NCBI GenBank assembly: GCA_035650735.1
Contig: DASRGZ010000059.1
Location: forward strand, 1 to 64,000
Origin: Chthonomonadaceae bacterium
Lineage (GTDB): Bacteria; Armatimonadota; Chthonomonadetes; Chthonomonadales; Chthonomonadaceae
DNA length: 64,000 nucleotides
Direction of reading: 5' to 3'
Each line of letters begins with the position of its first letter. Within the stretch, counting starts at the first letter, position 1. Below are positions 18,001-24,000 of this stretch, piece by piece. Made by a program: the position numbers.

Positions 18001-21000
18001 GGGACGCCGCCGCCCGCCGCGACCTGCTGCCGGCGCTGGACTATCTGCACGACCCGCGCGCCGTTCCCTACCTTACGCGCCTGCTGGAACGCCGCAACGA
18101 ATGGCCGGAGGGCGAGCTAATCGGCTGGTTCGTCGTGCGGGCCTTTGAGCGCATCGGCGACAAACGCGCGCTCCCGGCCTTGCGGCGGTTGGAGGCGCAG
18201 GGCCGACGTGGCACGCTGCACCAGGCGATGCGTCGGTTCCTACGCGGGTCCGAGGCGGGCTTAAGTTCCGATCTGAGGCTTGAGGTACAGCGCGTCATTC
18301 GGAGTCTGGAGCAGGGGAAGGACTCGCGCCAACGCAAAGAGTTGCTGCGGCCCGCCCAATCCCAGACCGGAGAACTGCTGCGGCCCGCCGTCGCCGCGCC
18401 GGAGGAGGAAGATTGGCAGGAGCGCGCCCAACTTCTACGTCCGGAGGAGGCTTCCCCCGAATTCTGAACGAGGATCTCCCGTTACGCCGGCGCCCTCTTG
18501 GCGCAGTCGCGGTTCCGTCCGCGAGGACGGTTGGCCGTAGGCCCACCAGACGGGTACTTTCAGTGCCCGGCTCTCAGGCGGTCACGCATGGTCGGAATAA
18601 GCCCGATCGCGTAAGGGAAGTGAGGATAACGAATCGGTGTCTCTAGTCAAGCACAAAGCGCAACCGCCCGCTCTCCGGACGCCGCCGCGCCCGGCGCGAG
18701 GGCACGGCTTCGGCGGATGGTGGTACCGCACGGGGCGAATCGGAACTAGCCACGCCGTCCTGTGCCTGCTCGCCGTGACGACCCTGCTGCCCTTCCTCTG
18801 GATGGTGCTGGCCAGCTTCAAGGCCCGCGCCGAAGTCGAGCAGCTCAACCCCTTCCCCACGATCTGGCACCCGGAGAACTACGCCAGGGTTTTTCAGGAG
18901 ATCCCCTTCGCCAAATACTACTTTAACAGCATCTTCATCGCCGCCTGGGTCACGGCGCTGCAATGCCTGACCAGCGCTATGGCCGCCTACGCCTTCTCGC
19001 GCATCCAGTGGAAAGGCCGGGATACCGTCTTCCGGCTCTACCTGGCGACTCTGATGATCCCCGGCGTGGTCACCATGATCCCCAACTTCACGCTGATGGT
19101 CAAGCTGCACCTGCTCGACTCATATGCCGGCCTCATCGTTCCGGCGGCCTTCAGCGCGTTCGGCACGTTCCTGCTGCGCCAGTTCATGCTCACCATCCCG
19201 CGCGCCCTCGACGAGGCCGCCGGCATGGACGGCGCGACCCACTGGCAGATCTTCTGGGACGTGATCCTGCCGCTGGCCCGCCCCGGCCTGATCACCCTGG
19301 CCGTCTTTACCTTCATGGGCACCTACGGCAGCTTTACCTGGCCGCTCATCCTGATCAAGAGCGAGGGCTTGCGGACCCTGCCCATCGGCATGCTCTACTT
19401 CGATAGCGTCTACGGCAAGCAGACGGAGCTCATCATGGCGGCCAGCGTCATGAACATCGTGCCGCTGATCTTGCTGTTTGTCGTCACGCAAAAGTACCTC
19501 GTGGAAGGCATCCAGCTTGGCGCGGTCAAGGGATAAACCTAATGCGAAACACCAGAACGAAGGCCACGGAGCCGTCTGGGTTCAATGGGAATCAGCAATG
19601 ATCTTGCTGCCGCTGGCGCTCTGGACATGAAGATGGAAGCGTCTCAGGCTGGGAGCCGTTTCCAGGCGTGCGGCAAAATCTCGGAGGGAAAGCGTACTGA
19701 GCAACACTTCCGTTTCATAAATCCGAGCATTGTAGTCGCCTGGATTGATTTCCTGGACGCCCTCCAGCTTGCTTAACGCCTTTTCGAGCGCATTAGCCAG
19801 CGAAACGCTGCCGATGCCGCGCACTTCGAGTTCGATATGGCGAGTGGGACTGAGGGCGAGCTTATCGAGCTTGCGCATCAGTCCCTCGCTTATCTCTTCG
19901 CCAAGCTGCTGCAAGCAGATTTTGCTTGCCAATTCCTCCGTCGCATCCGGGGAGCCAGTCTTATGGAGCGCATCGGAGTAGATTTTCTCGCCGGTATCCA
20001 CGCGGATCGCTTTTAGCTCCAGGCGTCCCCGGCACTGGACACGCTCGAGGCGTCCCAGGTCCGTATCCACCATGCGGCGCGTGGCCTCCTGAGTGAACGC
20101 TTCCCCCGTCACCAGAATATCGGCCCCGAACCGGCGTCCTATCTGTATGGCCTCCTTTTTGGCATCCGCGCGGCCTTGGAGGATACGGTCCATCTAGGCT
20201 GAATAGCGCAATTCCTGGTAGCCGTTTGGCCTCTCTATGGAAGCGGCATCTAGCCTTCCTGTTCTCTCTTCCCTTTTCAGGCGGCGTGCGGCAGGCGTTG
20301 CGGCGCGGCATCCGAAGGAGCGCTCTTGCTCTGAGCCAGCGCGGCAAGCGGTGCAGGCTCCCGGGCGTCGCGCGGATAGATCGCCGATCCCAGACCCAGC
20401 CGCAGGGGCGCGCGGCCCGCATGCCAGCCCTGCTCCTCCAGCCAATCACCCAGGGCAACGGCCAGACGCGCCTGGACGACCCGCACCTTCTCGCCCGTGA
20501 ACGGCAAGATCAGGGCAAAGGTATCCTCGCTATAACGGGTCAGGATGTCCACGCGGCGCACCGTCTGGCGGATGATCTCCGCCGTGCCCAGCACCGCGTT
20601 GTCCGCCTTGAGCGTTCCCTGGGCGCGGGCAAAGCTCTCCAGCCCGCCCAGCACCACGAACAGGAGCGCCAATTCGCTCTCCATCCGGCTCGCCCGGCTC
20701 AATTCCTCTTCCAGGCGGCTCTCGAAATAGTTGCAGTTATAGAGCCGGGTCTGGCTATCCACGACGGAGACCTGATCGAGCAGCGCCTGCTGCTCCTCCA
20801 GGCGCTTGCGCATCTGCGCCATCTTCATCTGCGCGTCGCGCAACTCGTCCGTGACCAGGATCTTCTTGAGCTTGCGGGTGGAGTTGCGCAGGATATGCGA
20901 GACGTAATTACAGGAGATGCCAAGCTGCCGGGCTATCTCGGTCTGGTTCAAATCCTTGTAATAGAACTCGAAGAGGACCGTCTGCTCCAGGTCTTTGAGC

Positions 21001-24000
21001 TTATCCATCGCCGTTTCCAGCACGATCCGGTCTTCGACGGGCAGTTGGAAGGAGACGGCGACATCCGCGCCGGCCTGCCGCTCCATATCAATGGCCCCGC
21101 CGCCATCGTCTTCGCTTTCGCTGCCACCGTCAATGGATTGGACTTTGAAGACCTCCCGCGTGGTCAGCATCTCCGTGACCGTCTCTTCGGACAGGCCCAT
21201 CATCTGGGCTATCTCGGCGTTGGTGGGCGGACGGCTGAACTGTTGGGCCAGCGAGTCGATGACCCGCGTCATCCTCTGGTTCAACTCCTGCAGCCAGGCC
21301 GGTTCCTTGATGATCTTGCCCCGGTCGCGCAGGTAGTGCTTGATCTGTCCAATGATAAAATGAGTGGCGTAGGTCGAAAATTTAACGTTCTTGGTTGGGT
21401 CGTAGAGATCGATAGCCGTAATCAGGCCGATATAGCCTTCCTGCGCCAGATCCTCGACCGGCTCGGCGGAGCCGGAGAAGCGGCGAGCCACGCTCTCCAC
21501 CAGGCCGGTATACCGCAGCACGATCCGGTCGCGCAGGGCAGAATTGCCGGTCTGCCGGTACTCCAGCAGCAGCTGCAAAACCTCTTCTTCCGTGCGCTTG
21601 CGTTGGGCCTGATTCGGTTTTGGGTTTTCTATGAGCATCTTCCTTAACTTTGGTCACACGGCTGCGTTGGCGTTTATGGCGCGAAGCCTCAAGGCCGCAC
21701 TCATTATTGCCCAAAGCGCCCGGTAGCTTTAGCGTTACGGCGCGCCCATAGGCCCGCAGGACCTCTTCCGCGTGCAACCAGCGTCCTCTGCGGCTCGCCG
21801 ACTCTTTTCTCCCCTCTCCTTGCGAAGGAGAGGGAGCAGGGGGTGAGGTCTCTCCCCTCTCCCGCAGCGTGGATCGCCAGGCGGAGGGCTGTCGCAAGGC
21901 AGAGCCGTGTCGCAAGGTGTCGCTAGGCGGAGCCGGAGGCCGTAACTCCGGCGACCCTAAGCAGTGGCCCAACCATTGCAGGCGCGACCCTTGCAGTCCA
22001 TTGCAGGGCCGACCCTGGCAGTAGGGGACAGGGGGTGAGGGCTACATGAGAAAACAGGAGGACTCTGTGGGCGTAGAGGAAAGGAAGGAACAGCGAGGGG
22101 CTCTTGCCGGGGCGTTAGACAGCGAAAATTTGCAGCCCAGCCCTGCGTATAGAATAGAGAAAAACGGGCCTCGGTCGGCCATTGCGCCTCCGTTTATGCC
22201 AGCGCATGTGAAATGGTACACAACCGAGCAGGAATCGTTGACAATCGTTTCGAAAAGTGTGATAATACAATTTCATAGGAACAAAGCGGGCTGCGCCAGA
22301 TAGGGTGTAAATAGCCTGCAGAGTAGCGAAACAACGACCGAAGACACAATTCACAATTGGCCCTCACCCCGGCCTTGTGGGAGAGGGGAGAGACCTCGCC
22401 CCCAGCCCCTCTCCTTCGTAAGGAAAGGGGAGTTTGAAAACACAAGAATTCCTCGCACGCGCGGGGGTGAACCGAGATCGCTATGAGGGCTTGACGCCGA
22501 GCCCGCGCGCAGACCGCGCGGTTGCCCGGAGAGGCGCGCTCGCGCCGCGCCGTCCGCTAGAGCCAGGCGCGAAAGGAGACCGGCTGCAATGTTTAAACGC
22601 ATAATGCGCTACCTACGGGCACTGATAATGGGTAAGCTCGATCAATGGGAAGACCCAGAACTGATCATTAACGAAGCCGTTCGCGAGATGAAGGAAAACC
22701 AGATCAAGAACCGCGAGCTGGCCGTGCAAGCCATTACCCAGAAGAATAACCTGCAGGCCGAGGTAGACAAGGAAGAGCGGCTTATCGCCGAGTTGGAGCG
22801 CAAGGCGACCCTGGCCCTGCAATCCGGCAACCGGGAACTCGCCAAGCAGTTCCTGAAAGAAAGGGCCCTGCATGATCAGACCCTGCAGAGCATGAAGGCC
22901 AACCTGGCTGCCGCCACCGAAGCAGCCGAAAAGGTCAAGCAAGCCATCCGTCAGGAAGAGGAGCGCATTCGCGTGCGCACCGCCGAGGCGCTGGCCATGA
23001 AGGCCAACATGAAGCAGGCCCAGATCCAGATCAAGATCAATAAGGCCCTCGACCAGTTCCAGTTCAGCGAGAACGAGCAGCAGTGGTCGCACGTGCAGGA
23101 GCGCATCCAGACCATGCAATCGGAGGCCTCGGCCCGCGCGGAAGTCGCCAATACCAGCATCGACTCGAAGCTGCGCGAGATGGAGGTCTCCCAGATGGAT
23201 GCAGAGGCCGAGCGCCAGCTGGCCGAGCTGGAGGCCAAGATGGCTATCGGCGGCACCACCGCCACCAACTACGCCACCGCCAATGTCCAGCAGGTGCAGA
23301 CGGTCGGCGGCGGTGCCGTCAACTCCAACGGCGCTGGCGGCGCGCAGGAGAGCGAGCTCGACCGGCAGCTGCGCGAGCTCGAAGCCAAGCTGGGCGGCCA
23401 GAAGTAATCGGTAGAAGGCAGGGCATTGGGGCGATGGCGTGGGCAGGGCCTCAATGCCCTGTTTGCGCCTGCCGCCCGGTATCGCCCGGCAGCACCCCAC
23501 CTAACCGTGGTTTAAGGCGGAAGGAGGAAGGAGGAAGAGAGCAAGAGCTTTTCTTCATCCTTCATCCTTCCTCCTTCCGCCTTTCAAGAGGCAGCCACGC
23601 TTTCGCGCTGTGCCATCTATTTCCCGAAATTTGGAATCAATTCCATGAGTATCCCACAACGTCTCTATCGTATTGCCAAGTCTAAACTCAACGAGCTTAA
23701 GGATCGCATCGAGCAGCTCGACGCAGAAACCCAGCTGGACCCGGAAACCGAGCGGAAGCTCCAGCAGGCCCAGTATCGCCGGGATGCCCGCCGCGAACTG
23801 GAGGATGCGCTCTCGACGCCGGCCCCGGCTCCGCCTCCCGCCTCGTCTCCGCCACATCCGAGCGACCGTTCTACCGTTCCCTCGCAGCCGTCCCTGCCGC
23901 GCCGCACGCCGGAAGAGATCGCGCGCGGGACCTTTTCTAAGACCGCTCCTCCGCCCACCAGCGCGCCCACCACAACCACGCCAACGGCCCAATCAGACCC

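Follow-up and report, generated by a model that had tools for sequence, protein, structure and literature searches.

A group-3 σ factor fused to a degenerate GGDEF domain in Armatimonadota: a candidate c-di-GMP-gated regulator of pilus and flagellar genes

The window, a 64,000-nt stretch of DNA from a Chthonomonadaceae bacterium, carries a gene whose product is confirmed, by sequence, as a SigB/F/G-like group-3 σ core joined to a catalytically dead GGDEF domain (Table 1). The dead domain has kept a complete four-residue I-site, and c-di-GMP probably switches the fusion σ factor directly. The favored reading, to which we assign a probability of roughly 0.6, is a one-component alternative σ factor, gated by c-di-GMP, that serves genes of surface appendages.

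Table 1. Features of the σ-GGDEF fusion gene and its promoter, in window coordinates
Feature	Position	Strand	Evidence or conservation
σ28-like promoter: -35 CTAAAG (21732-21727), 15-nt spacer, -10 GGCAATAAT (21711-21703)	21703..21732	(-)	38 orthologous sites
σ-GGDEF fusion gene, 453 aa	20277..21638	(-)	ORF and Pfam
σ region 2, aa 40-108	21315..21521	(-)	Pfam Sigma70_r2
σ region 3, aa 118-182	21093..21287	(-)	Pfam r3
σ region 4, aa 210-259	20862..21011	(-)	Pfam r4
Continuous helix, aa 243-288, from the -35 recognition helix to the GGDEF wide turn (D294)	20775..20912	(-)	Predicted, AlphaFold
Degenerate GGDEF domain, aa 292-433	20340..20765	(-)	Pfam, E 1.5e-16
R315, secondary cross-linking I-site residue (PleD R313 position)	20694..20696	(-)	116/119, 75/77, 51/53
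Primary I-site R361-x-x-D364	20547..20558	(-)	119/119 homologs, 77/77 loci
Lost active site S-E-D-T-F	20517..20531	(-)	No intact motif among homologs
R391, third primary I-site residue (PleD R390 position)	20466..20468	(-)	118/119, 76/77, 48/53

The first-pass annotation had given the reading frame, its strand and its length correctly, and a repeated Pfam search returned the same domain limits. The σ plus PF00990 architecture that it reported for all 120 best homologs was seen again in 119 of 119, a repeated homolog search having listed 120 proteins, one of them the fusion itself; this identical architecture among the close homologs, together with the single ORF, rules out a frameshift or a chance fusion. 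Regions 2, 3 and 4 score above the Pfam cut-offs and there is no region 1, region 2 beginning at residue 40, which identifies a group-3 σ70 factor. The best NCBIfam model is SigBFG (TIGR02980; 182.6, below the cut-off of 234.35), with cyanobacterial SigF second (171.6; cut-off 261); SigB gives 170.2 (cut-off 315), and FliA_WhiG (TIGR02479) gives 117.9, also below its cut-off (189.6). The family DNA-reading motifs of SigB, SigF and SigG in regions 2.4 and 4.2 are absent, which leaves the fusion outside these families. Region 2.4 reads H-F-I-I-G-Q-I-K-H rather than the P-x-I-I-G-E-I-K-R of plain SigB/F/G matches, and the region 4 recognition helix reads S-C-N-Y-V-S-H-I-L-R rather than S-Q-M-H-V-S-R-L. 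Regions 2.3 to 3.0 are near-invariant across the fusion family, unlike those of plain SigB/F/G proteins. Two true FliA genes sit elsewhere in the genome. At E<=1e-40, A1 has no match there other than the fusion, and this also holds for 28 of the 29 genomes of the order that bear it, the exception being one gene split over two contigs. No stand-alone RsbW-like or SpoIIAB anti-σ was found in the genome (assembly 97.6% complete), where HATPase_c_2 has only one match over its full length, at the C-terminal end of a multidomain protein of 539 aa, and no rsb genes are present among the fusion's conserved neighbors.

The C-terminal part has a GGDEF fold (Pfam 61 bits; pLDDT >90 over residues 291-440) and is matched by Foldseek to WspR and a T. 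maritima GGDEF domain. Conservation was scored in 119 listed close homologs, 77 genome loci and 53 deep representatives; the family tree is a quick version. As annotated, the former active site is S370-E-D-T-F374, and the RxxD motif (R361-R-V-D364), whose R and D are each invariant among the close homologs, lies five residues upstream. The accompanying claim that all five active-site columns vary applies to four of them (370-373), F374 being kept in 115 of 119. An intact motif occurs in none of the 119, 77, 53 or 102 homologs of the sets searched, the metal-binding Asp at 329 and the guanine-binding Asn at 337 are each present in only 2 of 119, and metal- and GTP-binding residues are also lost across the deep representatives. 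With SEDTF in place of the motif and both the Asp and the Asn gone, an active diguanylate cyclase is ruled out.

The c-di-GMP receptor signature proposed earlier is supported, and more strongly than stated, as R391 and R315 are also conserved. The four-residue definition of the I-site is taken from the available portion of PMC7288161, and R315 is equated with PleD R313 because PleD D292 aligns to D294, which fixes the register. The primary I-site (RxxD plus the distal Arg) is present in 118/119 close homologs, 76/77 loci and 46/53 deep representatives, and all four residues in 115/119 and 74/77 of the first two sets; in the deep representatives, these four rank within the domain's six best-conserved positions. 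RxxD is common in GGDEF domains at large, both among those tested here (7 of 10) and according to the same portion of PMC7288161. The domain could instead be a ligand-independent dimerization or protein-interaction module, or bind another nucleotide, its arginines being structural. GGDEF folds often keep D364, R391 and residues close to them, and one clade (6 representatives) has lost RxxD while keeping the domain, as such a role would allow. This explanation is very doubtful, as the four I-site residues occur together in 45 of 53 deep representatives versus 4 of 10 ordinary, active cyclases, while the rest of the domain mostly drifts.

Under the favored model, intercalated c-di-GMP dimers would bind R361, D364 and R391 in one fusion protein and R315 in a second, cross-linking the two by analogy with product inhibition of PleD. 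The cross-linked σ factor would form no productive holoenzyme, making the GGDEF domain a built-in anti-σ; this block is predicted because, in the structural model, the domain hangs directly on the region 4 recognition helix. The ligand would thus most likely turn the σ factor off (about 60% for inhibition, about 40% for activation). The AlphaFold model, matched by Foldseek to σ factors and GGDEF domains, has a pTM of 0.45, suggesting that the two parts make no fixed contact. The linker between region 4 and the GGDEF domain ranges from 26 to 54 aa across the deep representatives, which argues against rigid helical signaling. Both features would also suit a ligand-loaded GGDEF domain that, instead of altering σ activity directly, sets the place or lifetime of the σ factor, for instance through a tether to the pilus machinery or to a cyclase, or through proteolysis; PopA reportedly marks CtrA for proteolysis.

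By sequence and comparison, the fusion gene is ancestrally the last gene of a type IVa pilus operon. It closes a pilB-pilT-pilC operon in 33 of 80 loci, with pilC directly upstream, and the annotated operon products are a secretin, PilB, PilT and PilC. Although this linkage to PilB and PilC would again fit tethering, no partner gene adjoins the fusion in every locus, and in Chthonomonadales the gene lies outside the pilus operon with every I-site residue kept; control of place or lifetime therefore appears quite unlikely. Within the order, the fusion has been lost together with flagella, fusion and flgB being concordant in 39 of 41 genomes.

The first-pass annotation treated the family as a speciality of Chthonomonadales. 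This needs correction: it spans Armatimonadota, with at least 146 of 251 genomes, a count that, like the other genome counts given here, overstates independence because the genomes are related. Its count at E<=1e-40, 1,209 database proteins, was not reproduced; 1,288 proteins, fusions or not, reached E<=1e-3 among 8,000 scored candidates. In searches not resolved by taxon outside the phylum, the homologs with a named organism all come from Armatimonadota or an unclassified bacterium, with the exception of one (P0009, 71% identical) that is labeled Chloroherpetonaceae and is possibly mislabeled. No full-length match to the fusion was found in a phage collection, and a GGDEF domain is still present in six of the eight fusion-less genomes tested. 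As the annotation had implied, full-text searches of non-subscription papers turned up no σ-GGDEF fusion in titles or abstract openings, and such fusions are not mentioned in the available portions of PMC9239204 and PMC10519070.

A conserved σ28-like promoter precedes the fusion gene, 64 nt ahead of the start codon. Its 38 distinct orthologous sites were chosen by the -10 only, and the -35 starts with CT in 33 of them. The flgB promoters have the same -35 and spacing in 14 of 28 loci, with two further near-matches, and agree with the WhiG2 consensus, T(A/C)AA-N16-GCCGATAA, of the accessible part of PMC12871210. In the proposed scheme, FliA would transcribe the fusion gene along with pilus and flagellar assembly genes. 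The alternative is that the fusion σ factor itself reads CTAAAG-N15-G(G/C)C(A/G)ATAAT, which would make it autoregulated and master of the early flagellar and pilus assembly genes, its own gene not being a FliA target. In most orthologs, the second position of the fusion's own -10 is G, as opposed to C in flagellar promoters, and the best promoter-matrix matches in the genome include the fusion gene and fliM-, flhA-, flgB-, csrA- and pilM-like genes (names read from sequences); cyanobacterial SigF autoregulates (PMC2532724, available portion). Autoregulation is nevertheless unlikely. In other lineages a canonical GCCGATAAT precedes the fusion gene or its operon, flgM and flagellin have the same promoter architecture as the fusion gene, and 20 FliA-less loci have no such site before the operon save weak or intragenic matches. 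The exact pattern CTNMAG-N15-GGCRATAAT occurs in 52 of the 251 genomes of the phylum; since coding regions held many of the 30 sites that were inspected, this figure does not serve to count the regulon. In the leader, RNAalifold gave no consensus hairpin, a hand-set hairpin structure covaried, and Rfam returned nothing in four loci.

At permissive c-di-GMP, the fusion σ factor would read a -10 TGGAATA with a lineage-specific -35 (CTCA-type or TTAAA-type), and would serve promoters of major pilins, second flagellins and c-di-GMP enzymes. Candidate promoters with this -10 precede genes of all three kinds, the pilins being those of FliA-less relatives. CTCA-N17-TGGAA(T/G)A stands ahead of the major pilin in 14 of 15 loci, including genomes where no FliA was found. 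TYAAA-N14/15-TGGAATA occurs at 65 sites (control 21) in the 29 fusion-bearing genomes of the order and at 3 sites (control 5), all in ORFs, in 11 genomes lacking fusion and flgB; the strict KTTAAA-N15-TGGAATA is found in 6 of 41 genomes, all fusion-bearing. Across the phylum, the combined target pattern has a patchy spread (59/251 genomes): several families that bear the fusion have few or no cases (f29 1/14, f8 0/7, f17 0/6, f20 0/5, f23 3/12), and it occurs in fusion-less genomes (f18 3/5; five sites in G162, two each in G247 and G150). Flagellin promoters outside the order gave scattered partial matches only, the f26 pilin-promoter matrix revealed no clear regulon when scanned on the genome, and 184 intergenic TGGAATA sites show no positional enrichment upstream. 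Family f26 has a second σ-GGDEF paralog, which could read the same promoter.

The clearest candidate target in the genome is a GAF/HD-GYP, phosphodiesterase-like gene (C131:12376), and such a target would complete a loop of feedback. Among four orthologs, one (G257) has a near-matching promoter, another (G145) a -10-like element only, and two are of the GTCAATAAT class. As annotated, the genome carries eight c-di-GMP-I aptamers, one of them (C191:35015-35148) before flgM, whose ORF lies 56 nt downstream; there are nine further GGDEF domains, seven with GG(D/E)EF, and five HD-GYP-motif proteins. The aptamer ahead of flgM, the operon's PilB, which matches the c-di-GMP motif NF053729 (43 bits, cut-off 38, in the one protein tested), and the negative feedback that a phosphodiesterase-like target would mean would all suit the opposite sign of control. 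I-site-bound c-di-GMP would then dimerize the σ factor or free an autoinhibited state, and high c-di-GMP would switch on the pilin and phosphodiesterase genes in an attachment program with negative feedback. Activation, which shares the receptor claim and differs in sign only, remains tentative and somewhat unlikely: second flagellins and the flhG-like/fliA region, as candidate targets, fit a motile, low-c-di-GMP program, and the analogous RsiG-WhiG switch inhibits (PMC8325347, available portion).

Similarity to the SigB of Bacillus and Staphylococcus shows in the fusion's best NCBIfam model, SigBFG, and in its top fold matches, which include S. aureus SigB. SigB is controlled by RsbW-RsbV partner switching; the fusion, unlike SigB, scores below all cut-offs and has other DNA-reading residues, no rsb neighbors and no stand-alone RsbW found. 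ECF41-like ECF σ factors, of group 4, carry fused C-terminal SnoaL or TPR extensions without a second-messenger site, and in them, as proposed here, a regulatory module within the σ chain replaces the anti-σ. PopA and SgmT are said to be degenerate-GGDEF receptors of c-di-GMP. A dead active site with an intact RxxD and two more arginines is also seen in PelD and the PleD I-site (PMC7288161, in part), but the output of the fusion is a σ factor, and the literature on such receptors, in the portions available, names none. The fusion shares its SigB/F/G-like group-3 character with cyanobacterial SigF, the σ factor that, in the available part of PMC2532724, drives the major pilin gene through a promoter class of its own; SigF differs in its promoter (TAGGC/GGTAA) and lack of a GGDEF domain, and the fusion scores under the SigF cut-off. 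In the accessible text of PMC7005675, PMC8325347 and PMC12871210, the published route from c-di-GMP to a σ factor runs only through a separate anti-σ, RsiG, in the RsiG-(c-di-GMP)2-WhiG switch of Streptomyces and Rubrobacter. Both systems would place a group-3 σ factor under post-translational c-di-GMP control, predicted here, with type IV pili, motility and c-di-GMP metabolism as predicted outputs. RsiG, however, is a coiled-coil protein with the motif E(X)3S(X)2R(X)3Q(X)3D, whereas the fusion has a GGDEF I-site in the same chain, and its σ is SigB/F/G-like (182.6 bits versus 117.9 for FliA_WhiG) rather than FliA/WhiG-type, which sets it outside that switch.

If the favored reading is true, a receptor-bearing σ factor would be the shortest possible link between a second messenger and promoter choice by RNA polymerase, and degenerate GGDEF domains would gain a new output. 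With its predicted binding residues, the promoter of the fusion gene and the candidate target promoters, the proposal is open to direct tests on purified protein, and a σ factor that responds to c-di-GMP within a single chain could become a reporter or a synthetic switch. For the Armatimonadota, it would be a conserved regulator of pilus and flagellum in a phylum with almost no genetics.

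The ORF encodes a protein of 453 aa, in which the Pfam limits of Sigma70_r2, r3, r4 and a C-terminal GGDEF domain are those proposed by the first-pass annotation. In the AlphaFold model (mean pLDDT 85.3, pTM 0.45), the sigma and GGDEF domains are both folded, and a single helix (residues 243 to 288) links the -35 recognition helix with the GGDEF domain; Foldseek returned sigma factors and GGDEF domains as separate matches. SigBFG is the best-scoring model for the sigma part, which nevertheless stays under every subfamily cut-off and whose DNA-reading segments are unlike those of plain SigB/F/G proteins. 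The fusion sigma is classed as a distinct group-3 family. At E<=1e-40, a fusion profile matched 214 of 251 genomes of the phylum, with weak matches, likely to plain SigB-like paralogs, counted in; 148 of the 150 best matches listed extend into the GGDEF part, covering at least 146 genomes. Where a record names its organism, this belongs to Armatimonadota or is unclassified, apart from one labelled Chloroherpetonaceae. The sigma-GGDEF fusion is real and conserved, and is a new architecture of known parts. It is apparently undescribed so far; full-text searches, with supplements and subscription papers outside their scope, found no such fusion.

The active site had been described as lost and the RxxD motif of the inhibitory site (I-site) as kept, and indeed the former reads SEDTF and the latter is R361-D364. 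The I-site of PleD, in the portion of PMC7288161 that describes it, consists of R359, D362, R390, and R313 from the neighbouring domain. Aligning PleD D292 to D294 of the fusion places the corresponding positions at R361, D364, R391, and R315. All four residues are present in 115 of 119 close homologs, in 74 of 77 genome loci (of 80, three whose aligned ORF lacks the complete domain were left out), in 45 of 53 representatives of 50%-identity clusters, and in 100 of 102 proteins found with a distant family member as query. An intact active site occurs in none of these four sets. Ranked by conservation over the 53 deep representatives, these residues all fall among the top six positions of the domain, while only 4 of 10 ordinary cyclase domains from the same DNA, a small sample, have all four. 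RxxD is lost in one clade (six deep representatives), and linker length ranges from 26 to 54 aa. A deep-branching group carries partial remnants of metal- and GTP-binding motifs, which fits an origin by decay of an active cyclase. The fusion has the features by which I-site receptors are recognised in sequence, and is very probably a c-di-GMP receptor.

Besides the fusion, this genome encodes nine GGDEF domains, seven with GG(D/E)EF, and five HD-GYP-motif proteins; the eight c-di-GMP-I aptamers counted previously were found again. With these components present, c-di-GMP is plausibly both made and broken here. A TGGCATAAT element lies immediately upstream of three of the riboswitch leaders; the aptamers on contigs C82 and C220 are tandem, ahead of putative subtilisin-like secreted proteins (a sequence reading). 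A cluster behind a pilus operon on contig C131 contains a GAF/HD-GYP gene, an MCP-GGDEF fusion (871 aa, active site intact), and a second GAF/HD-GYP gene.

Coordinates of features (window positions unless a contig, C, or extracted locus, L, is named)
Feature	Position	Strand	Basis or remark
Fusion gene	20277-21638	-	
Fusion gene promoter	21732-21703	-	match to ortholog pattern
203-aa ORF	19582-20193	-	83 bp downstream of the fusion gene
WD40/TPR gene, then five HEAT-repeat paralogs	11014-18467	+	
Near-consensus sigma70 promoter	22238-22266		TTGACA-17-GATAAT; divergent from the fusion gene
PspA/IM30 gene	22589-23407	+	downstream of the sigma70 promoter
KGG/LEA stress-repeat gene	26357-26734	+	Pfam
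GATGGG leader hairpin	L003-L091; e.g. L005:1666-1717, L025:3733-3784		covariation of hand-set structure
TGGCATAAT-preceded riboswitch leaders	C82:956-1040, C191:31662-31746, C220:25136-25211		
c-di-GMP enzyme cluster (L309)	C131:12376-18035		target pattern ahead of the GAF/HD-GYP gene at 12376
Zinc-ribbon gene (family f29)	L117, L119, L120, L121		
Second sigma-GGDEF paralog (family f26)	L288, L289, L291, L295, L296		
Flagellin leader hairpin	L251-L280		

In the proposed mechanism, c-di-GMP would cross-link two fusion molecules in the manner of PleD immobilisation; conservation of the secondary arginine points to such ligand-mediated cross-linking. We put at roughly 70% the probability of direct gating of sigma activity by c-di-GMP, be it inhibition or activation. 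Inhibition at high c-di-GMP is the favoured sign, because the GGDEF domain sits on region 4, no stand-alone RsbW was found in this genome, and flagellins are among the candidate targets. Activation of the fusion sigma by c-di-GMP is a possible alternative, as is control of its localisation or turnover.

Directly preceding the fusion gene in 33 of 80 loci is pilC. One annotated operon of this type encodes secretin, PilB, PilT, and PilC, the PilB c-di-GMP-binding motif being above cut-off, and longer regions have pilM and further assembly genes upstream. In Chthonomonadales the fusion gene is separate from the pilus operon; a similar operon on C131 of this genome runs from pilM to secretin, pilB, pilC, and pilin, without pilT and sigma. 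The 203-aa ORF has no Pfam match and is not one of the conserved neighbours. Near the sigma gene in Chthonomonadales, the WD40/TPR gene occurs at 10 loci and HEAT genes at 6, the window counted. The KGG/LEA family is commonly under general-stress sigma control.

Of 41 genomes of the order, 28 yielded both the fusion and flgB and 11 yielded neither. These 11 come from six genera and are non-independent; FliA is present in both discordant genomes. Eight of the 11 have 0, 0, 1, 1, 1, 1, 3, and 7 GGDEF domains (each lone domain intact), whereas this genome has 10, and five genomes with the fusion from other families have 4-12.

The ortholog promoter reads CT(A/C)(A/C)AG-N15-G(G/T)C(A/G)ATAAT. The 38 distinct sites were chosen by the -10 only; a -35 then appeared at fixed spacing, starting with CT in 33. 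The same -35 and spacing, with a GCC(A/G)ATAAT-like -10, occur at 14 of 28 flgB promoters of the order, and flgM and one flagellin of this genome share this architecture, which is the WhiG2 consensus in the lines of PMC12871210 that quote it. In other lineages, a canonical GCCGATAAT lies ahead of the fusion gene or its operon. The fusion gene reads as a predicted FliA target, which would account for its loss together with flagella; autoregulation, with the fusion sigma transcribing its own gene, is a possible alternative. A CTNMAG-N15-GGCAATAAT promoter also precedes a conserved small zinc-ribbon protein gene. The leaders of 25 orthologs from Chthonomonadales share a conserved hairpin, GATGGG at its core, which adjoins the ribosome-binding site some 50 nt ahead of the start codon; it is absent from the window. 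A structure set by hand shows covariation (72% paired; score 0.48, matched in 0/500 shuffles and higher than in every slid control), although RNAalifold gave no consensus and Rfam no match there. The hairpin is possibly a protein-bound translational control element.

Candidate targets of the fusion sigma come from relatives with a major pilin after the sigma gene, where CTCA-N17-TGGAA(T/G)A lies in the gap at 14 of 15 loci, some of these loci being in genomes where no FliA was found. An exact match is present in f26 (12/12 genomes) and f22 (2/2). Twenty further sites were inspected: one precedes a fliA operon, one a flgB-flgC operon, and five a second sigma-GGDEF paralog. This paralog is shorter and divergent in region 2.4-3, and lies under a TGGAATA promoter; RxxD is retained in all three of its sequences that were read. 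In Chthonomonadales, this -10 paired with a -35 of the TTAAA type stands ahead of flagellin genes in six genomes (a near-match in a seventh, G145), of an flhG-like gene upstream of fliA (G136), and of a GGDEF/HD-GYP gene (G075); paired with a -35 of the CTCA type, it precedes a pilin after pilC (G231). Matches to the relaxed pattern, TYAAA-N14/15-TGGAATA, number 65 (control 21) across 29 genomes of the order that carry the fusion and 3 (control 5) across the 11 that lack both it and flgB, with a Fisher p of 0.035 that is overstated by kinship of the genomes. G252, with flagella and no fusion found, has 6 such sites. Counting against these targets, the combined pattern is patchy across the phylum: several families with the fusion lack it, some fusion-less genomes have it, and no larger regulon was found in this genome. 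The target assignment is a lead with about even odds, and the full target model is tentative, rather doubtful than probable. The flagellin leaders share a GC-rich hairpin before the ribosome-binding site, whose GCAGGA(T/A)G-like loop we take to resemble a CsrA site; a csrA-like gene on C166 has a FliA-type promoter.

The fusion would work like the RsiG-WhiG switch, yet is not a member of that system as presented in the relevant parts of PMC7005675 and PMC8325347, the latter of which predicts pilus control in Rubrobacter. Likewise, it resembles cyanobacterial SigF in output, yet is not a member as that factor is outlined in PMC2532724. In one family the fusion gene is found in 23/23 genomes and FliA in 0/23, and phylum-wide the fusion is linked to pili rather than flagella. 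Under inhibition at high c-di-GMP, a phosphodiesterase target would create positive feedback.
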